64,000 bases of DNA from a virus: the UHGV virus genome UHGV-1451962, one strand, 5' to 3'. The notes under the pieces are model-generated. The model was given only the letters and a program-made list of their open reading frames with translations, had not been told where the DNA came from and made no database searches. How positions within the stretch are numbered: position 1 is the first letter of the stretch; every line of letters begins with the position of its first letter. Positions 1 to 51,361 of this stretch are shown here, one piece after another. Made by a program: the position numbers and the translations under genes.

Positions 1-133
1 CTGTTGTTTCAAATTCTTGTCCAGCAACGTAAGATGTACGGTTTGGTGGAGTAGTAACTTCAATAGAGTGGAGTGCTATTGAGCTTCCGCCACCTTTTCC
101 GCCTTGTTCAGTTAAAATGCATTTAACAGGCAA
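1..133 (-). CDS. hypothetical protein, N-terminal part only (gene runs off window start)
   Basis: Minus-strand frame open to the window edge; TTG start at 131-133 with AAGGAGGT RBS at 143-150; N-terminus MPVKCILTEQGGKGGG; product unknown. Confidence 0.3.
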   Translation of the reverse strand, partial: MPVKCILTEQGGKGGGSSIALHSIEVTTPPNRTSYVAGQEFETT

Positions 134-251
134 GGTATAAGACCTCCTTATCAAGAATTATTATTAGAGTTTTAAAACTCCATCATTATTTATAGAATAA
201 AGTACACCTTTTAGATTAATTGGGAACGTACTTTCCATAAAAAATGTAAAA

Positions 252-285
252 TTGGGAAAAGGATATAAAAATATCCTTTTCCCAA
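252..285. promoter_or_regulatory. perfect inverted repeat TTGGGAAAAGGATAT-N4-ATATCCTTTTCCCAA in divergent promoter region
   Basis: 15-bp arms read directly from sequence; lies between divergent genes (1-133 minus, 425-2170 plus); operator-like, function unproven. Confidence 0.35.
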
Positions 286-424
286 TATAAAAATATATTC
301 TAAAAGTTTGGATATCTTATCCTTTTCATCTATACTTAAAGATTATTTTAATTAATTTTCCTTAGATTGACCAATGTTTCATAAGGTGTACTTTTTAAAC
401 TTATATTTTGAAAGGAGTTTTTAA

Positions 425-2170
425 ATGGCTGTTCAATGTGTACTTGTCGGAAAAGGCAAGGATGATGTATTTACTGCTGTTTATGGCGAAACTACATTTG
501 ATAAAGTGTTAAAAGCTTATAATGAAAATAAAGTAGTTCAAGTGATTTATCAAAATCGTATTTATTATTTAGATAATACTACTGTTGTAGATTCTCCTGA
601 AGCATTTTCTTTTATTTCTGCTTTTAGTAATCAAAATGATGAAGCTGGTGAAATAAAGCATTATGTAATAAGTTTAATGACAGGAGATAGTTGGTCTGGG
701 CCTTTCTTACAGAAATCTACTCCAGCAACTCACGCGAATACTCATAGTAAAAATGGTGATGATCCACTTACCCCCGCAGATATTGGAGCTATGGAATTAT
801 CAGAAAATGTTCTTAAACAATCAAATGAAGATATTACTTCTCAAGTAGCGCAAGCTTTATTTGGGGATTTAGTTCCTTTTAGCGGTGGAACCATGACTGG
901 TTTGTTAAATGTTCTTACTCCTGTTAGAGATAGTAATGCTACTACTAAAAAGTATGTAGATGATGCTTTGAGTGAGAAAATTGGAATGGATGGCATTGGC
1001 GATTTGCATGTATGGAAGAAGACTATAATAACAAAACAGGAGATTCCAGCAAGTTTTACTTTAGGTGATGTACACTCTGGTTCGTTTCGTTTTGTTAGTG
1101 GTGAAACTAATGTGTTGTTAGTAGGTACTCCTAAAGTTAATGAGAGTGGTGTCGTTACCTTAACAAACTCTGCGCAGTATAATTTTAATTATAATTCTTC
1201 ATCTCCTAGTATATCTGATCTGCGAGGACAGTATTGCATGTTTACCATGATAGCCGATCAATTTTCTAGTTTTACTGCCAATAAAGTTTTTTATATACCC
1301 ACTGATGCAAACTATATTTCTTTATCAAGTTCTAAAAATATTACTAAATATCAAGATGTTAATGGTACACCTAAAATTCCTGCCGAAGTAACTACTACCT
1401 ATCCCGCATCTACTAATCCCAATGCGTATCAAGAGGGGAGCGATGCAAAACCAGCAGGATATGTACTTGGTAATGTGATAACAGGTTCATTTTGTATTGG
1501 TAATACAACAGCACCTACGAGAGCTGCTTATTATGTCGCATCTGATATTTCTGTATCTGATAATGGTGTTTTATCTATTTCAACACAAACAAATATAACT
1601 ATTGGTGGTAATTTTTTTGTATCTAGCCGTGATTTAATTGCTGGTAAATTTATACAAATTTATAATAAAGGGTCTATGTCTTCTGTTTTATCTGAACCAT
1701 TCACAACAGTACCAGGCCCAATTATTTATATTCCGAATGATGTAAACTTAACGTCTGGCGGTGATGGAAATTTAAATTTATATATTGATCGCTACCAACC
1801 TATTACTGGCTACGCTGCTATCCCCGCAGGCACCACTATTGAATATCTGGGGAAGTTGGGAGATAAGACTAGGGTAATAATTGGCTCGTATATTGGGACA
1901 GGGGTCTGCGGGGCAGAGAATCCGACCAAAATAAAAACGAGTTTTTTACCGAAACTTGTAGCAATAAATGGAGTAGGAAATACCGGCAGTACGGGCATTA
2001 TTCTGTTTTTTCGAGATATGAACTATGCGTTCTCAGAAATCGGCTCAAGTACCAACTTTAACTTTACTAATATAACCTGGTTATCAGACGGAGTACATTG
2101 GTATTCTAGCAAAGTCCTTATGCAGGGGAATAAGCAGGGGGCAATTTATAAATACATTGTTATCGGTTAA
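425..2170 (+). CDS. tail fibre protein
   Basis: 581-aa ORF, ATG after GAAAGGAG RBS; tail-fibre signature SGGTMTGLLNV...ATTKKYVDDAL and HANTHSKNGDDPLTPADIGA. Confidence 0.7.
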   Translation: MAVQCVLVGKGKDDVFTAVYGETTFDKVLKAYNENKVVQVIYQNRIYYLDNTTVVDSPEAFSFISAFSNQNDEAGEIKHYVISLMTGDSWSGPFLQKSTPATHANTHSKNGDDPLTPADIGAMELSENVLKQSNEDITSQVAQALFGDLVPFSGGTMTGLLNVLTPVRDSNATTKKYVDDALSEKIGMDGIGDLHVWKKTIITKQEIPASFTLGDVHSGSFRFVSGETNVLLVGTPKVNESGVVTLTNSAQYNFNYNSSSPSISDLRGQYCMFTMIADQFSSFTANKVFYIPTDANYISLSSSKNITKYQDVNGTPKIPAEVTTTYPASTNPNAYQEGSDAKPAGYVLGNVITGSFCIGNTTAPTRAAYYVASDISVSDNGVLSISTQTNITIGGNFFVSSRDLIAGKFIQIYNKGSMSSVLSEPFTTVPGPIIYIPNDVNLTSGGDGNLNLYIDRYQPITGYAAIPAGTTIEYLGKLGDKTRVIIGSYIGTGVCGAENPTKIKTSFLPKLVAINGVGNTGSTGIILFFRDMNYAFSEIGSSTNFNFTNITWLSDGVHWYSSKVLMQGNKQGAIYKYIVIG

Positions 2171-2222
2171 AAAAAGAATTTTAATGTACTACATCAACAA
2201 CCAAAAGGAGGAAATAAATTAA

Positions 2223-2534
2223 ATGTTTTATATTAATTCAATAAAACAAAATAATAATTATGGTAATCCTATGGGTCAATATTTTAAAGACTCAATACAA
2301 TTACCAGATGAATTATTAAACAATTATCTTGAAACAAAAGGATTTTGTAATTTTGAAATTCAAGATAATATTATTACAAAAATAATTGTAAATCAAAATG
2401 ATTTAGATGATTATAATAATAACCATCTAGAGGTTAAACCAGAACCATCAGCAGAGCAAGATATAAATGCAATGTTAGTAGACCAAGAATATAGAATAAC
2501 ATTACTAGAATTAGGTATGAAAGGAGATTCCTAA
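2223..2534 (+). CDS. hypothetical protein (tail-fibre associated)
   Basis: 103-aa ORF with AAAAGGAGG RBS, between tail fibre and XkdX-like gene. Confidence 0.55.
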   Translation: MFYINSIKQNNNYGNPMGQYFKDSIQLPDELLNNYLETKGFCNFEIQDNIITKIIVNQNDLDDYNNNHLEVKPEPSAEQDINAMLVDQEYRITLLELGMKGDS

Positions 2535-2668
2535 TGTTATATAGAGTTTTAAAAAGAATGATTGAAGCAGGTCAAACAGAAGGCCTGCAAGAAAAAATAG
2601 ATATTTTCTTTGCGGCTGGCCGCATTACCGCAGACCAATACACTGAACTCACTAAATTATTATCATAA
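2534..2668 (+). CDS. XkdX-family small phage protein
   Basis: 44-aa ORF MLYRVLKRMIEAGQTEGLQEKIDIFFAAGRITADQYTELTKLLS, start overlaps upstream stop (TAATG); C-terminal GRITADQYTELT resembles the XkdX motif; below the ORF-track size cutoff. Confidence 0.5.
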   Translation: MLYRVLKRMIEAGQTEGLQEKIDIFFAAGRITADQYTELTKLLS

Positions 2669-2689
2669 TTCCCAAAATTTTTGGGAATT
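2667..2689. promoter_or_regulatory. 23-bp perfect palindrome AATTCCCAAAA-T-TTTTGGGAATT (terminator-like hairpin or protein-binding site)
   Basis: Read directly; begins at the XkdX-like stop codon and precedes the serine recombinase gene; shares a TTGGGAA core with palindromes at 252-285 and 3892-3901. Confidence 0.35.
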
Positions 2690-2739
2690 TTAGATTAATC
2701 GTCTACTAATAATTTTCTTATATAGTAGAGGTGAAAAAG

Positions 2740-3357
2740 GTGTTATATGGTTATGCAAGAGTTTCTTCCCGCGACCAAAATATAGATAGACAAATAATTG
2801 CATTAAAAGAGGTCGGCGTAGAAGAAGAAAATATCTTCATAGATAAACAATCAGGTAAAGATTTTAATAGACCTTCTTATCAAGAATTATTAGAAACAAT
2901 TAAAACAGGAGATATGGTAATTATAAAATCCATAGATAGATTAGGTCGAAATTATTCAGAAATTTTAGAACAGTGGAGAATTATTACTAAAGTTCTGAAT
3001 GTAGATATTAAAGTTATTGATATGCCGTTACTCGATACCTCCTACGGGGATGGTACATTAAATAACTTTATAGCTGATTTAGTTTTACAAATTCTCTCTT
3101 TTCAGGCAGAACAAGAGAGAATTTGTATTAAACAGCGACAAGCAGAAGGAATAGCTGCTGCAAAACAAAAAGGAGTTAAATTTGGCCGACCCCGCAAACA
3201 GCTTCCTTCTAATTTTGAAGATTTATATTATAGATATTTAAATAATGAACCAGTGGATAGATTATCAAAAGATTGTAAAGGATTATCTAAATCTACTTTG
3301 CGGTTGCGACTACAAGAACGTCATTCTAAAGATAAAGCATTGGGTGTAATTATTTAA
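2740..3357 (+). CDS. small serine recombinase (resolvase/invertase family)
   Basis: YARVSSRDQ catalytic-serine motif at N-terminus, about 205 aa; GTG start at 2740 (or GTG 2731) after AGAGGTG. Confidence 0.8.
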   Translation: MLYGYARVSSRDQNIDRQIIALKEVGVEEENIFIDKQSGKDFNRPSYQELLETIKTGDMVIIKSIDRLGRNYSEILEQWRIITKVLNVDIKVIDMPLLDTSYGDGTLNNFIADLVLQILSFQAEQERICIKQRQAEGIAAAKQKGVKFGRPRKQLPSNFEDLYYRYLNNEPVDRLSKDCKGLSKSTLRLRLQERHSKDKALGVII

Positions 3358-3414
3358 TCTTTCTATTGTTTATTTTAATTATAATGAAACTAATATAGAA
3401 AGTAGGTCTATAAT

Positions 3415-3819
3415 ATGAATTATTATGAATTATGGACACAAATTTGGCAGATTTGTTTAGTCCCCTTATTTGCGGCTTTAACTGCTTTTGTTGTTAAATA
3501 TTTAAATGCTAAAAGTCAAGAAGTTTCTAAAAATATAAATAATGCAACTGCTGAAAAATATATAGAAATGATTAATAATACTGTTACAAAATGTGTTATT
3601 GCTACAAATCAAACTTATGTTAATAGTCTTAAAGAGCAAGGTAAGTTTGATGTAGAAGCTCAAAAGAAAGCTTTTAAACAAACTTATGAAGCAGTTATAA
3701 GTATTTTAAGTGAAGATGCAAAACAATATATTAAAGAAACAACCAATGATTTAAATACGTATTTAACACAGTTAATAGAAGCAGAGGTAAATAAACGTAG
3801 ATTAGAACCAGAAAAATAA
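3415..3819 (+). CDS. holin-like small membrane protein (possibly LL-H-type holin)
   Basis: 134 aa, single N-terminal hydrophobic helix (ICLVPLFAALTAFVV) then charged helical tail; follows the tail-fibre/XkdX block as in PBSX-like lysis modules. Confidence 0.4.
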   Translation: MNYYELWTQIWQICLVPLFAALTAFVVKYLNAKSQEVSKNINNATAEKYIEMINNTVTKCVIATNQTYVNSLKEQGKFDVEAQKKAFKQTYEAVISILSEDAKQYIKETTNDLNTYLTQLIEAEVNKRRLEPEK

Positions 3820-3824
3820 TTAAA

Positions 3825-3862
3825 GGCTCCCTTAGTTTTTCGCTAAGGGAGCCTTTTTTTTT
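3825..3862 (+). terminator. rho-independent terminator
   Basis: GGCTCCCTTAG...CTAAGGGAGCC stem followed by a T9 run. Confidence 0.65.
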
Positions 3863-3891
3863 GTCAAAATTTTTTCCAAATTTTTTGACAA
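3861..3891. promoter_or_regulatory. inverted repeat TTGTCAAAATTTTTT-CC-AAATTTTTTGACAA overlapping a TTGACA -35-like hexamer
   Basis: Read directly; immediately followed by AATTGGGAAA (3892-3901); upstream of gene at 3973. Confidence 0.3.
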
Positions 3892-3972
3892 AATTGGGAA
3901 ATCGTATGGGAATAAAATTTATATATGTATGGAAGGTAAAGGAAATAAAAAAATTTTTAGAAAGGAAAAATT

Positions 3973-4410
3973 ATGTATCCATACAATAACAATAATTATT
4001 ACCCACAGCAAACAATGCGTCAGCCGCAAACATATATCAATCCAACTCCGCAGATAATGGCGCCTCCGGGGTTGAAAGGACGTATGGTTTCTTCATTAGA
4101 AGAAGCAAGGGCAACAAGTATTGATTTTGATGGCTCTGTTTTTTATTTTCCAGATTTAGCGAATAAGAAAATTTATACAAAGCAAATTAATATGGATGGT
4201 ACTGCTACATTAAATATGTATGAGTTAAAAGAAGGCCCAACTTCTAATAATTCTACTTATGTAACAAGAGAAGAATTTAATAATGCTTTGAATAAAATTC
4301 AAATGAACTTTAATTTGTTAAATAATCAGCAAGAACCACCTGTGGCGCAAGTTCCTCCTCCTGAACCTGCTCCAGAAGAAACGCAAAATGCGCCTACATA
4401 TAAATTTTAA
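3973..4410 (+). CDS. hypothetical protein, Q/N/Y/P-rich termini
   Basis: 145-aa ORF with GAAAGGAAAAATT RBS; low-complexity N- and C-termini; no recognised motif. Confidence 0.55.
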   Translation: MYPYNNNNYYPQQTMRQPQTYINPTPQIMAPPGLKGRMVSSLEEARATSIDFDGSVFYFPDLANKKIYTKQINMDGTATLNMYELKEGPTSNNSTYVTREEFNNALNKIQMNFNLLNNQQEPPVAQVPPPEPAPEETQNAPTYKF

Positions 4411-4421
4411 GGAGGAAAATA

Positions 4422-4664
4422 ATGCAAGCAAATCCAATGCAAATTTTATCAATGATTAAAGGAGGTAAAAATCCTCAACAATTAGTGATGAATATTTTAG
4501 AGCAGCAAGCACAAAATAATCCTATGGGTGCTAACTTATTACAGCTAGTTAAAGATAATAAGACTGCGGATATTGAACAAATTGTTAGAAATTATGCCAA
4601 AGGTCAAGGCATAGATTTCGACAAAGAATTTAATGCTTTTAAACAAATGTTAGGCATTAAATAA
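4422..4664 (+). CDS. hypothetical protein
   Basis: 80-aa ORF with AAGGAGGAAAA RBS, tightly packed in plus-strand operon. Confidence 0.55.
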   Translation: MQANPMQILSMIKGGKNPQQLVMNILEQQAQNNPMGANLLQLVKDNKTADIEQIVRNYAKGQGIDFDKEFNAFKQMLGIK

Positions 4665-4692
4665 TTTTATAAAACAAAAGGAGAATAAAAAA

Positions 4693-5529
4693 ATGTTTAA
4701 TACTGCAAATTCTAGCTATTCTTTAGCTGATATCGCCGCAGCTACCGGCGGTAATCGTTGTAATGATGATGGTTTTGGTGGAGGCAATGGCTGGTGGGTC
4801 ATCCTTCTGTTCTTATTCATGATGAATGGATGGGGCTGGGGTGAAAACGGCTATGGTCGTAGCGTGTCACCAATGGGAGGTACAACTACCCGTGAAGAAA
4901 TTGCATATGGCTTTGATATGAATGGCTTGGAGAACTCTGTTCGTGGTATTCAAAATGGCCTATGTGATGGTTTTTATGCTCTTAACAATAGTCTTTTAAC
5001 CGGTTTTGGCAATCAAGCTTTGAATACTCAGCAAGGTTTTGCTAGTACCGATAATGCTATTTGTACTCTTGGTTATCAGACTGCTCAGTTGGCTAATGGT
5101 ATCACTTCTGATATGAACCAGAATACTAATACTATTACTCTTGGTATGAATAATGGTTTTAATGGTGTTACTGCTGGTTTAACTGCTTTGGGTACACAGT
5201 TACAGTCTTGTTGCTGTGAAACCGGGCGTGCTATTGAGCGTGGTTTTAGTGACTTAAACTATAACTTAGCTACTCAGTCTTGCGACACTCGTAGAGCTGT
5301 TCAAGATAGCACTCGTGAAATCTTAGATTTCTTAACTCAGGATAAGATTGCTTCCTTACAGTCCGAGAATCAGACTTTGAAATTTGCGGCTTCTCAGCAA
5401 GCCCAAAATGCTTATCTGGTTAGCGAACTTGGTCAGAAAGCTCCTATCCCCGCTTATGTAGTGGCTAATCCTTATTGCAACTGCGGTTCCGCAAATTCTT
5501 GCAATAGCTGCTGCTCTAGCATTTATTAA
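4693..5529 (+). CDS. Cys-rich protein with Gly/Trp-rich hydrophobic segment
   Basis: 278 aa; GWWVILLFLFMMNGWGWG hydrophobic segment, CCC triplet, C-terminal CNCGSANSCNSCCSSIY; AAAAGGAG RBS. Confidence 0.55.
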   Translation: MFNTANSSYSLADIAAATGGNRCNDDGFGGGNGWWVILLFLFMMNGWGWGENGYGRSVSPMGGTTTREEIAYGFDMNGLENSVRGIQNGLCDGFYALNNSLLTGFGNQALNTQQGFASTDNAICTLGYQTAQLANGITSDMNQNTNTITLGMNNGFNGVTAGLTALGTQLQSCCCETGRAIERGFSDLNYNLATQSCDTRRAVQDSTREILDFLTQDKIASLQSENQTLKFAASQQAQNAYLVSELGQKAPIPAYVVANPYCNCGSANSCNSCCSSIY

Positions 5530-5553
5530 TTAAATTTGGAGGATAACTAATTT

Positions 5554-5976
5554 ATGGAAATTACAGCCAATGCTGCTCAATCAGTTGCAGCCAATCAAAA
5601 TGTTCTTATGACTGATACAGTAGTTGGTGGAAGTTGTTCAATGGTTCATCGTAATGGTAGTGGATTAGTTACTTTGCGCGGCCTGGCTAGCACCCAGTGC
5701 CGCGCTCGTTTTAGAGTAACTTTTGGCGCTAATATAGCTGTTCCTACTGGTGGAACCGCAGGTGCTATTTCTTTAGCTATTGCTATTAACGGCGAACCTG
5801 TTGCTACAACAACCATGACAACTACTCCAGCCGCAGTCGATCAGTACAATAACGTGTTTAGTAGTATCTTTTTAGATGTTCCTAAAGGTTGTTGTTCTCA
5901 GATTAGTATAAAAAATATTAGCACTCAAACAGTTAGCGTTCAAAATGCTAATCTAATTGTTGAACGTGTTGCTTAA
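5554..5976 (+). CDS. hypothetical protein (possibly beta-sandwich C1q/TNF-like decoration or receptor-binding protein)
   Basis: 140 aa, Thr/Ala/Val-rich beta-strand-like composition with GCCSQ; assignment is compositional only. Confidence 0.5.
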   Translation: MEITANAAQSVAANQNVLMTDTVVGGSCSMVHRNGSGLVTLRGLASTQCRARFRVTFGANIAVPTGGTAGAISLAIAINGEPVATTTMTTTPAAVDQYNNVFSSIFLDVPKGCCSQISIKNISTQTVSVQNANLIVERVA

Positions 5977-5990
5977 TTTGGAGGTACAGT

Positions 5991-6545
5991 ATGGAAAGAC
6001 TAAAAAATATGAGAAATTGTTTAATGGCTTGTGTTGAAGGGGAATTGGCCCATCTTGATACTGTTGATGCTCATGAATTAGGTGAAGCAGTAGATATGAT
6101 AAAAGATTGTGAAGAAGCGATGTATTATCATACTATTAGAAAAGCTATGGAAGAGTCTGATTATAATATTAATAATAGAGATATGGATAAACATCATGGT
6201 AGAATGTATTATCCTACTCCTAGAATGTATTATACGATTGATCCTAAAATGAAGAAACATATAAAAGATGAGGATGATTATGTATATTATGATGATATGT
6301 ACATGATGCCTTATAAGCCTTTAGAAAAAATGCGGGATAAGCGTGAAGGTCGTAGTCCTATAAGCCGCAAAACTTATATGGAATCAAAAGAAATGCACAA
6401 AGATAAGCCCACTCAGCTAAAAGAGTTAGAACACTATATGCAGGAATTAGCTAGTGATATAGTGGAAATGATAGAAGGTGCATCTCCCGAAGAAAAACAA
6501 ATGATACAACAACGCATTAATTCTATTTCCGCTAAAATACAATAA
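5991..6545 (+). CDS. hypothetical protein
   Basis: 184-aa ORF with GGAGGT RBS, rich in Y/M/D/K; no recognised motif. Confidence 0.55.
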   Translation: MERLKNMRNCLMACVEGELAHLDTVDAHELGEAVDMIKDCEEAMYYHTIRKAMEESDYNINNRDMDKHHGRMYYPTPRMYYTIDPKMKKHIKDEDDYVYYDDMYMMPYKPLEKMRDKREGRSPISRKTYMESKEMHKDKPTQLKELEHYMQELASDIVEMIEGASPEEKQMIQQRINSISAKIQ

Positions 6546-6877
6546 TGTATACAGTAAATGTAAATGGTGAAACATGGACAATAGAATTTGTTTCTTCTTC
6601 TAATTATAATTTAATGAGAAGTGATGGAACTTATACTATTGGAGTTTGTGATGATGAAACTAAAACCATTTATATAGATAAAAATTTAAATAATAGTTAT
6701 TTGCAAAAAGTTTTGTGCCATGAGATAACCCATGCTGCAATGTTTAGCTATGATATAAATTTATCCCTTGAACAAGAAGAATTATTAGCTGATTTATTAG
6801 CAACATATGGAGAAGAAGTAGTACAAAAAGCAAATATATTATTTAAACGTATAAAAGAAAATAGGGGAAGCTATTAA
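6545..6877 (+). CDS. putative zinc metallopeptidase (HExxH, ImmA/IrrE-like)
   Basis: 110 aa with LCHEITHAAMF (HExxH) motif; start overlaps upstream stop. Confidence 0.5.
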   Translation: MYTVNVNGETWTIEFVSSSNYNLMRSDGTYTIGVCDDETKTIYIDKNLNNSYLQKVLCHEITHAAMFSYDINLSLEQEELLADLLATYGEEVVQKANILFKRIKENRGSY

Positions 6878-6897
6878 ATTAGCTTCCCCTATTTTTT
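6863..6897. terminator. bidirectional rho-independent terminator
   Basis: AGGGGAAGCT...AGCTTCCCCT stem flanked by A-run and T-run, between convergent genes. Confidence 0.6.
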
Positions 6898-7308
6898 ACT
6901 TTCTATATCACGAATCGGCAATTCACAAACTCGTTCATAAAAATCCTGTCCTCGACCATTGCCTTTTAATCCTTCATGGTAAGTTTTCCACATAGCAGTA
7001 AGTGCAGAAAATTCATCAGACGTCAAATAACCTCTTTCTAAGTATTCTCGACAAAGATTTATTAGTCTTTCACTATAATCTTCTTTTAACGCTTCAAATT
7101 TCTTATTCTCTATATCAATCTGTTCTTGAAGAGGATTCAATTTTTCTTCTATTGTTTCATCTAATTTATTTTCATTTAATTTTTCAAATGCTTCTTTATA
7201 CTGCTGAAATTTTTTATCTAAATTTCTAAAATAAGCTAATAAACCAGCAGAAATCAAACCAAAAATAATTTCAAACCAATGTTCGACAAAGAAGGCGCCT
7301 GTTATCAT
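6889..7308 (-). CDS. membrane protein, unknown function
   Basis: Start moved to internal ATG (MITGAFF...) 12 nt after AAGGAGG; N-terminal TM helix then coiled-coil-like region. Confidence 0.5.
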   Translation of the reverse strand: MITGAFFVEHWFEIIFGLISAGLLAYFRNLDKKFQQYKEAFEKLNENKLDETIEEKLNPLQEQIDIENKKFEALKEDYSERLINLCREYLERGYLTSDEFSALTAMWKTYHEGLKGNGRGQDFYERVCELPIRDIESKK

Positions 7309-40508: not shown

Positions 40509-40524
40509 TTCCTTTCTTAATTTC

Positions 40525-40560
40525 TATATATATTATATAATATTTTTTTAAAAAAATAAA
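40525..40560 (-). promoter_or_regulatory. promoter-leader cassette (TATAAT -10 plus conserved AGAAA(G/T)TAAG..AGG leader)
   Basis: Minus-strand TATAAT at 40532-40537, about 25 nt upstream of start codon; same cassette recurs at many minus-strand gene starts. Confidence 0.4.
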
Positions 40561-40562
40561 TT

Positions 40563-40591
40563 AAGGGCAAAAGATCTTAATCTTTGCCCTT
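40563..40591 (-). terminator. rho-independent terminator
   Basis: AAGGGCAAA...TTTGCCCTT stem downstream of gene 40599-40817. Confidence 0.55.
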
Positions 40592-43848: not shown

Positions 43849-43927
43849 AAAACTTCAACCTCTTTCTTATTTATTTATTCCTTAACTTTCTATATATATT
43901 ATATAATATTTTTTTAAAAAAATAAAT

Positions 43928-43957
43928 TAAGGACAAAACTTTTAAAAGTTTTGTCCT
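43928..43957 (-). terminator. rho-independent terminator
   Basis: AAGGACAAAACTTTT-AAA-AGTTTTGTCCTT stem downstream of gene 43980-44498. Confidence 0.55.
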
Positions 43958-51276: not shown

Positions 51277-51361
51277 ATTAATTTATTTTGTTCAAGAAAT
51301 TTTTATTACTCTTTCCTTAACTTTCTATATATATTATAATATATTTTTATTAAATTTTCAA

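Follow-up and report, generated by a model that had tools for sequence, protein, structure and literature searches.

The DNA analyzed here, referred to throughout as the window, is a 64,000-nucleotide stretch of the virus genome UHGV-1451962; it forms part of a low-GC phage genome, and an identical region was found on a 137,488-bp metagenome scaffold. Near its left end a short non-coding segment, bounded by 12-bp inverted repeats, separates two divergent genes, one encoding a Big_3 protein leftward and the other a fibre-like protein of 581 amino acids rightward. The gene of a small serine recombinase (rec) lies farther to the right. The central features of this locus are listed here.

1–135, − strand: 5′ end of the left fibre-like gene, with start codon TTG at 135–133 (MPVKCILTEQGGKGGGSS...), taken from the translation
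199–210, + strand: left inverted repeat (IR-L), proposed crossover site, AAAGT-AC-ACCTT (AAAGTACACCTT), central dinucleotide AC at 204–205
211–382, no strand: non-coding segment that inverts, with 172 bp inside the repeats and a centre-to-centre length of 184 bp, in the majority orientation in the window
383–394, + strand: right inverted repeat (IR-R), proposed crossover site, AAGGT-GT-ACTTT, central dinucleotide GT at 388–389
425–2170, + strand: right fibre-like gene, 581 amino acids, hypervariable
2740–3357, + strand: small serine recombinase gene rec, 205 amino acids, Sin/plasmid-resolvase-like, proposed invertase

IR-L and IR-R are exact 12-bp reverse complements of each other and the sole near-perfect copies of this sequence in the 64 kb. 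Each is an imperfect palindrome in which AAAGT and AAGGT stand on either side of an asymmetric AC, so the pair stands in inverted orientation, as invertase sites do. Both copies co-vary between lineages (CC/GG versus CT/AG). Folding of 185–430 also allowed the paired repeats to be read as the closing stem of an RNA, a reading that was set aside because DNA inversion accounts for the paired changes. An earlier note on this DNA, made by inspection of the letters, had described three TTGGGAA-containing palindromes (here P1, P2 and P3) flanking the tail-fibre module; the proposed crossover sites are not these but the repeats at 199–210 and 383–394, which it had not noticed.

Evidence for inversion came from public contigs. 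Relatives were queried with a post-inversion junction built from CCGAGAAAAAGTACAC and the reverse complement of the far end. No flipped junction was found in IMG/VR, where 32 contigs carry the unflipped one. In a metagenome collection the flipped junction was present in three contigs (L115, L116 and L117), drawn from two sub-lineages and three data sets; L118–L121, L133 and L134 are also unflipped. Both junctions are visible in L115 and L116, with the orientation of the flanking genes unchanged, and the interior of L116 matches the reverse complement of that of L016 in 154 of 155 bases, between collinear flanks and with the breakpoints lying at the repeats. In relatives of the window, then, the segment is inverted, and its boundaries are exact. 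The window-lineage contig L124 has its first base exactly at IR-R, and several contigs of ~145 kb terminate at the switch; such breaks are expected if a sample mixes both orientations, and we regard them as suggestive.

The product of rec matches Pfam Resolvase (PF00239) with an E value of 3.1e-30 (105.6 bits, cut-off 23.3), which identifies the N-terminal catalytic domain, and PHROG 125, 'DNA invertase', at 7.5e-51. Its GTG start at 2740 agrees with the ribosome-binding sequence GAGGTG, and the product annotated publicly for identical contigs also has 205 amino acids, which bears out the serine recombinase of roughly that size described previously. Against solved structures in the PDB, the best match was Sin (7.3e-36), followed by gamma-delta resolvase (5e-23) and Gin (2.5e-14). 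Because the match to Gin is so much weaker than that to Sin, rec is, by these structure matches, of the Sin/plasmid-resolvase type and not of the Gin/Cin/Hin type to which it had been likened. The nearest annotated relatives are 'recombinase family' genes of Firmicutes plasmids, at ~50% identity, and identity to cultured phages tops out at ~41%. The protein falls below every NCBIfam equivalog cut-off (54.7 bits for the Mpi model, with a cut-off of 272). Its catalytic motifs YARVSS (YARVSSRDQ) and DRLGR (SIDRLGRN) are intact and are kept in most relatives, with YACVSS in place of YARVSS in L003 and L004. No Pfam helix-turn-helix match was obtained for the C-terminal part; the alignment with Sin extends to residue 187, and an S-x-S-T-L-R-L-R segment, presumed to be the recognition helix, is the same in the window and in relatives. 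This is the sole serine recombinase in the 64-kb window, and a Pfam overview of the − strand genes gave no second recombinase among the families listed (25 of 44 in one batch).

rec is syntenic in all relatives. The 32 IMG/VR contigs, up to 148 kb long, encode a Rec 68–74% identical to that of the window, and all have, in one orientation, the order rec, holin, six more genes and three − strand genes; the region upstream of rec varies among them. Many relatives have in-frame TAG codons at positions where the window has Gln (CAA/CAG), rec included (L001, L005, L010, L012 and L019, in rec, holin and fibre genes; compare window 2740–4410). Such codons are absent from the compared genes of the window and L003. 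This pattern indicates TAG-to-Gln recoding of late genes in relatives; no suppressor tRNA for TAG was found among the 17 tRNAs of the window. A separate observation concerns a 23/24-nt direct repeat, AGACCT(C/T)CTTATCAAGAATTATTA, at 140–163 and 2869–2892. The first copy spans the opposite-strand ribosome-binding region that serves the left gene, and the second lies inside rec (codons RPSYQELL), so that the leader of the left gene mRNA would be complementary to rec mRNA. The repeat is confined to the window lineage (L118, L121) and missing in relatives of 70% identity.

The recombinase and the core of the repeats are linked across the wider family. Palindromes of the form [outer motif]-AAAAGT-AY-ACTTTT-[outer motif] were found ~50–330 bp from at least nine homologous rec genes (49–59% identity). 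On plasmids they read TTTCAAAAAGT-AT-ACTTTTTGACA in E. faecalis, GTTCATAAAAGT-AC-ACATTTACGAAC in Peribacillus, CGTTCGCAAAAGT-AC-ACTTTTCCGAACG in Metabacillus (with more CGTTCG copies toward the gene) and GTCCCTAAAGGT-AT-ACCTTTAGGGC in Paenibacillus. Phage contigs with such palindromes are L033, L041, L047, L044/L048 and L055; in L055 the site is TCCCAAAAAGT-AT-ACTTTTTGGGA (TCCCAAAAAGTATACTTTTTGGGA), in which an outer motif like that of P2 is joined to the core. From these sites, the crossover-type site of the family is predicted to run from an outer specificity motif through an A-tract and GT to the central dinucleotide, then through AC and a T-tract to a second outer motif, and the window repeats correspond to its inner 12 bp. 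Recombinase type and core sequence are thus linked family-wide at the level of sequence. No common palindrome was found in the upstream 160 bp of the distant homologues L033–L080, whose sites lie mostly downstream of the gene. Separately, L055 (4282–4445) and L044 (8597–8750; also L048) have two CAAAAAGTATACTTTTTG palindromes 130–140 bp apart between the rec homologue and the next gene, in direct order in L055. No flipped junctions of the L055-type and L044-type pairs were found in IMG/VR.

Naturally occurring variants also connect rec with the switch. L134 (CALWOP010000177.1) has a deletion with one end at the centre of IR-R (AAAGTGTA|...) and the other ~12 nt short of the rec stop codon. With the right fibre operon and nearly all of rec gone, the switch is fused directly to the holin gene; the junction lies ~180 bp after IR-L when the locus is reverse-complemented. 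In L003 and L004, which come from different samples and independent assemblies, the right operon is cut to five codons (MAVKC). In L003 (1790–2140) these are fused to a P2-like site with its left half-site inverted (TTGGCAA-N5-TGGGCAA, a direct arrangement), and likewise in L004. The rec reading frame is intact in both, and Cys replaces the catalytic Arg (YACVSS). The equivalent Arg is indispensable to the resolvases of Tn3 and gamma-delta. In these two lineages, loss of the right operon coincides with rec deletion or with the catalytic Arg-to-Cys change, which supports a functional link between rec and the switch.

The segment itself contains four further elements.

220–238, no strand: short dyad TTGGGAA-CGTAC-TTTCCAT on the inner side of IR-L, block 2 of the conserved blocks in the alignment; relatives read TGGGAAAAATACTCCCA
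251–286, − strand: P1, one-way hairpin resembling an intrinsic terminator, with a U-run on the − strand only (terminator scan)
311–336, + strand: conserved hairpin GGATATCTTATCC followed by TTTTCATCTATAC (alignment), with a weak sigma-70-like match at 309–336
367–374, + strand: conserved TTGACCAA block just inside IR-R, invariant or near-invariant in the alignment

The P1 hairpin (252–285) pairs two 15-nt arms perfectly around a 4-nt loop and folds at −22.4 kcal/mol (z −6.5). Across six lineages its folding energy ranges from −12 to −22 kcal/mol, with coordinated changes in the arms, which read GGGAAAG/CTTTCCC in L003 and GGGAAAAG/CTTTTCCC elsewhere; these arms were compared from per-sequence folds, as the automatic alignment misplaced them. 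AAUUUUUU always follows the hairpin on the − strand of the majority orientation (5/5 other lineages tested), and in the flipped L115 and L116 the hairpin was scored as a + strand terminator. In the orientation of the window, P1 would block leftward transcription through the segment and not rightward, and a flip would reverse this. Conservation tracks the stem and not the heptamer (L010-type sequences read TTCCCTT), so P1 probably shares the TTGGGAA core largely by coincidence. The 311–336 element may be a late promoter facing rightward, away from P1. A by-eye comparison found that the small hairpin and TTTTCAnnTATAC to the right of P1 resemble elements before rec and before the operon at 3973; the TTTTCAnATATAc element is not a general motif across the window. 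The dyad at 220–238 is a possible accessory binding site.

The other two palindromes lie upstream of rec and of the operon that begins at 3973.

2667–2689, no strand: P2, head-to-head half-sites TTCCCAAAA-T-TTTTGGGAA, 12 bp from start to start
3861–3912, no strand: P3 region, five half-site-like heptamers in 12-bp phase before the operon at 3973

P2 has 11-nt arms around a single base and forms a weak hairpin (z −2.5). Its position and half-sites are kept upstream of rec in 32/32 relatives, where TTGCCAA or TTACCAA is paired with TTGGCAA (TTCCCAA and TTGGGAA in the window), the heptamers being 12 bp apart; the relatives have a third copy of the heptamer ~23 bp downstream of the pair. P2 amounts to the outer motif of an L055-type site minus the central AGTATAC and has no AGT-AY-ACT crossover core. 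The M−/M+ pair upstream of rec in relatives is made of the same halves (GGCAAAGT, ACTTTGCC), 10 bp and not 2 bp apart, and the spacings of P2 and of this pair resemble those of accessory sites in resolvase res sites. The heptamers of P3 are TTGTCAA (3861), TTTCCAA (3873), TTGACAA (3885), TTGGGAA (3894) and ATGGGAA (3906). Its 9-nt arms (TTGTCAAAA/TTTTGACAA) do not give a significant hairpin (z −0.46), and the palindrome does not include the TTGGGAA copy at 3894. After the holin terminator, relatives have TTTTCAA-N5-TTGGCAA-N5-TTGGCAA in the corresponding position and register. By our reading, the two arrays share a register, lying 30 and 42 bp upstream of a common TTTTCAtATAc element.

TTGGGAA is not enriched window-wide (17 found, 12.6 expected). 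Because the presumed recognition helix is the same in the window and in relatives, the half-site is better written TTGGSAA, and 6 of its 25 window copies fall within 513 bp of three intergenic regions, which were picked post hoc. P2 and P3 probably carry half-sites of the recombinase family at a spacing other than that of crossover sites and serve a regulatory role. Treatment of the three palindromes as one family of sites was dropped, as P2 and P3 carry TTGGSAA half-sites and P1 follows its stem. Thus all three palindromes of the earlier note exist and P1 is very stable, but P3 is not significant as a hairpin; their supposed common core is a half-site in P2 and P3, but not in P1. The fallback offered there, that the palindromes could be terminators or operators, agrees with a terminator hairpin at P1 and with what look like protein-binding arrays at P2 and P3.

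The locus thus combines short inverted repeats, a short non-coding segment with adjoining genes and, 2.3 kb off, a recombinase of a family that uses such sites; in relatives both natural orientations occur, with breakpoints at the repeats. These are the features of a regulatory inverton, and we think it reasonably likely that the segment is one, flipped by the Sin-family Rec protein with an altered expression of the two fibre-like genes. Rec would cut both repeats at the central AC/GT, rejoin them and turn the segment around. The cargo would be the one-way P1 terminator and a probable promoter-like element facing the opposite way; a flip would alter which fibre-like gene is reached by transcription that crosses or leaves the segment, and the receptor-binding or adhesin protein of the progeny would thereby change. 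Here we infer catalysis by Rec, the switching of fibre expression and the service of both proteins as alternative receptor binders. The P2 and P3 arrays would most likely bind Rec, for autoregulation, for control of the neighboring or downstream operon, or as an aid to synapsis. A fuller proposal is that a plasmid-type resolvase turned invertase flips a 184-bp terminator/promoter cassette between two complete, unrelated, divergent receptor-binding genes, so that alternative host recognition is reached by regulation and not, as in Mu and P1, by shuffling of coding sequence, that TAG-recoded members of the group make the invertase only late, and that half-site arrays couple the switch to recombinase level and to the lysis module. 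This we put forward tentatively, at slightly less than an even chance.

Several observations weigh against the regulatory inverton. No promoter could be placed confidently, since sigma-70-like matches occur at chance level in both orientations; the one that recurs near IR-R faces P1 and would give a transcript of only ~90 nt. The outer half-site motif present on either side of the core in homologues' sites is absent from IR-L and IR-R, and these repeats lie 2.3 kb from rec, as against ~330 bp at most for those sites. Orientation is strongly skewed (32 to 0 in IMG/VR), and all four window-lineage contigs that span the switch match the window, flips being known from relatives only. L134, with neither rec nor the right fibre gene, is locked in the majority orientation and appears to be a living phage; therefore, unless the left gene is dispensable, this orientation would not simply silence it. 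The two flanking proteins are assigned a fibre role from context and weak matches, and the survey for recombinases spans only about half of the 137-kb genome.

Two other roles for Rec have to be weighed. Rec could be an ordinary, Sin-like resolvase of circular genome multimers, acting at an upstream res site made of P2 and its neighbors, with inversion due to another enzyme or to a side reaction. The best structural relative is indeed Sin, the closest annotated relatives (~50%) belong to plasmids, and the half-site arrays stand immediately upstream of rec, as plasmid res sites do. However, P2 is without the AGT-AY-ACT core of the homologues' sites, which in the window occurs only at the inverted repeats. 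Deletion or Arg substitution of rec exactly where the right operon is lost would be unexpected for a genome-maintenance enzyme, and the phage encodes Pol III alpha, gyrase and DnaB, with no plasmid partition functions among the families listed. We consider this role improbable. A role mainly as a DNA-binding regulator, with self-repression at P2, control of the 3973–6877 operon at P3 and inversion as a secondary activity, overlaps with the regulatory inverton; it is less likely than that reading, though clearly more so than the resolvase role. It would fit the half-sites in the same register before rec and before the downstream operon in relatives, the TTGGSAA enrichment in these intergenic regions (a post hoc choice) and the rec frame kept in L003 and L004 despite the catalytic Arg-to-Cys change. 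Yet the binding is a prediction, the motif is short in AT-rich DNA and could be read by another phage regulator, and the observed inversion is left unexplained.

The earlier note had pictured inversion of the kind known from phages Mu and P1, in which the C-termini of fibre proteins are swapped. A recombinase does adjoin fibre-like genes, the PHROG family is named 'DNA invertase', and public assemblies hold both orientations of the segment next to those genes; but it is not fibre coding sequence that inverts. The search of 425–2700 for crossover repeats gave no pair, and neither inverted nor direct repeat pairs bounding fibre cassettes were found in 1–6000 or the whole window. No opposite-strand reading frame longer than 62 codons exists in 425–2700, the relatives are all collinear around the fibre coding region, where no inverted-repeat pair lies, and the match to Gin is far weaker than that to Sin. 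We give this explanation next to no weight. It is also very unlikely that the flipped contigs arose through faulty assembly, or through rare RecA-type recombination at short repeats that involves no dedicated enzyme. Only three flipped contigs are known and the evidence comes entirely from assemblies, but the repeats, at 12–13 bp, are below assembler k-mer length. Identical exact boundaries recur in three independent data sets and two sub-lineages, and the repeat core is that of the cognate sites of the adjacent enzyme's family.

The left fibre-like gene has a full length of 587 amino acids with Big_3 Ig-like domains (gene calls and Pfam, on the identical contigs L118–L120), and its L010 homologue matches Big_3 with an E value of 6.8e-13. 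The right protein gave one weak PHROG match, 'virion structural protein', at 5.8e-4. In genomes with identical holin proteins (L118–L124) the right-fibre genes encode 570, 581, 594, 610 and 627 amino acids, one of them with DUF6273, which points to rapid swapping of the gene between the switch and the gene for a 103-residue protein that follows it. The 'tail fibre' label for the right gene thus draws weakly on the PHROG match, on hypervariability among near-identical genomes and on context. Past the first ~7 residues the left and right proteins have no similarity. In all lineages the two divergent genes open with M-x-x-[KQ]-C-[IV]-L (window 133–115 on the − strand and 425–446 on the + strand; L005 and L010 equivalents), and in the window codons 4–7 of the right gene (AATGTGTACTTG, 435–446) amount to a degenerate third copy of the core of the repeats. 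TTTAAAA(A)CTCC is common to the flanks outside both repeats, at about equal distance. The shared gene starts and outer flanks suggest an old inverted duplication.

Three further features complete the right operon and its surroundings.

2223–2668, + strand: two small genes of the right operon, for products of 103 and 44 amino acids, the second being the 'XkdX-like' gene of the earlier note
3415–3819, + strand: holin-like gene, PHROG 13712 at 2.9e-32
3822–3856: strong terminator after the holin gene (terminator scan and folding)

As for the XkdX label, the 44-residue product matches only PHROG 2310, a family of unknown function (1.2e-14), with zero matches in Pfam and NCBIfam. The 3973–6877 operon is predicted to be dispensable because L025 has lost all of it and L016 part. 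In L025 the entire six-gene post-holin operon is missing, with a junction at ~9150 at GTCAA microhomology, and in L016 (3790–3860) part of the equivalent operon is gone. The L025 deletion was considered as a half-site event, which was rejected in favor of the join at the microhomology. The products of the operon belong to families without known function (PHROGs 16490, 20016 and others).

The right operon, rec and the holin gene lie in a small + strand island (425–6877) that is bordered on the left by the divergent intergenic region 136–424 and on the right by a bidirectional terminator (6856–6897). The genes of the window are otherwise nearly all on the − strand and are dominated by replication and nucleotide-metabolism functions (Pol III alpha, gyrase A/B, DnaB, ligase, NrdD, ThyX and dUTPase). 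As part of the same overall reading, and with a likelihood like that of the inverton, we propose a phage family of ~75–150 kb with hosts among gut Clostridia; two contigs of the family were binned into metagenome-assembled genomes with Eubacterium and Oscillospiraceae, which is weak host evidence. The 17 tRNAs include, in the cluster at 49.6–60.3 kb, an ARAGORN call with a four-base anticodon (tgaa) at 58844–58919 on the − strand, of undetermined identity, and TTAATAAACCTTATAGAAATATATTTACTATA occurs three times in tandem between tRNA genes at 58225–58337, with a period of 39–42 nt. Between 17.4 and 63.5 kb, at least 9–11 copies of an intergenic family of 50–70 nt read TTGAAAATTT...TATGATATAATATATAGAAAG on the − strand (for example 40521–40585, 43887–43951, 51292–51361 and 60813–60882). 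They are near-consensus sigma-70 promoters of the replication-gene block, with zero copies in the + strand island. An Rfam scan of 1–7000 gave only sub-threshold chance matches.

If the proposal is right, a phage regulatory inverton between alternative fibre or adhesin genes would unite switches of the Mu/P1 type with those of gut bacteria and would offer a simple, testable model of bet-hedging by uncultured gut phages over hosts or receptors. It would also present a Sin-type resolvase acting as an invertase on minimal 12-bp cores, and a compact flip-terminator part for synthetic biology. Assemblies of such phages would show a single orientation and often be interrupted at the switch. Programmed inversions are textbook knowledge for the fibre genes of Mu and P1, as regulatory invertons are for gut bacteria. 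No prior description of the present arrangement was found in searches of open-access papers. The general class of invertons has been described (PMC13501310, PMC9881135), and a 2026 methods paper calls its putative viral invertons the first from human-gut metagenome-assembled viral genomes (PMC13501310). Known phage fibre inversions change coding sequence (PMC9881135).

That is the case for Gin of Mu and Cin of P1, which resemble the present locus in having a phage serine recombinase beside tail-fibre genes, with progeny of mixed host recognition as the likely outcome. In those phages, coding C-termini and chaperones are swapped in a 3–4 kb segment, whereas in the window no coding sequence would move and two complete, unrelated genes face away from the segment. 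No gix/hix-type pair of 26-bp sites was found around coding sequence, and no search was aimed at an enhancer in the 5′ end of rec. Closest in sequence are Sin of S. aureus plasmids and beta of pSM19035; homologues share the GT-AY-AC core with A/T tracts. Beta recombinase inverts as well as resolves. Unlike the switch, these systems have one res/six site per replicon beside the gene and resolve dimers with the help of HU or IHF; in the window there are two core sites, inverted and 2.3 kb off, with no site II found next to them at a set spacing. Direct-repeat half-sites occur at P3 only, and their 12-bp spacing recalls Sin site II (PMC2428073).

The Hin system of Salmonella (fljBA) is similar in that a small serine recombinase turns a regulatory segment that picks one of two surface-protein genes. 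Like the proposed sites of the window, those of Hin are imperfect palindromes whose central dinucleotide is asymmetric. The H segment differs in being ~1 kb long, in holding hin and in needing Fis and an enhancer inside hin, whereas the window switch has 184 bp, is non-coding and has a Sin-like recombinase 2.3 kb away. Mpi promoter invertons switch surface structures of Bacteroides fragilis on and off, and there too a serine invertase flips non-coding segments of ~170–230 bp with short inverted repeats; unlike Mpi, rec is outside the Mpi family and belongs to a phage and not a chromosome, with one switch between two divergent genes. In the cwpV/RecV system of Clostridioides difficile, as here, the orientation of a short segment decides the action of an intrinsic terminator before a surface-protein gene, but RecV is a tyrosine recombinase, the terminator spans a repeat and a single gene is controlled.

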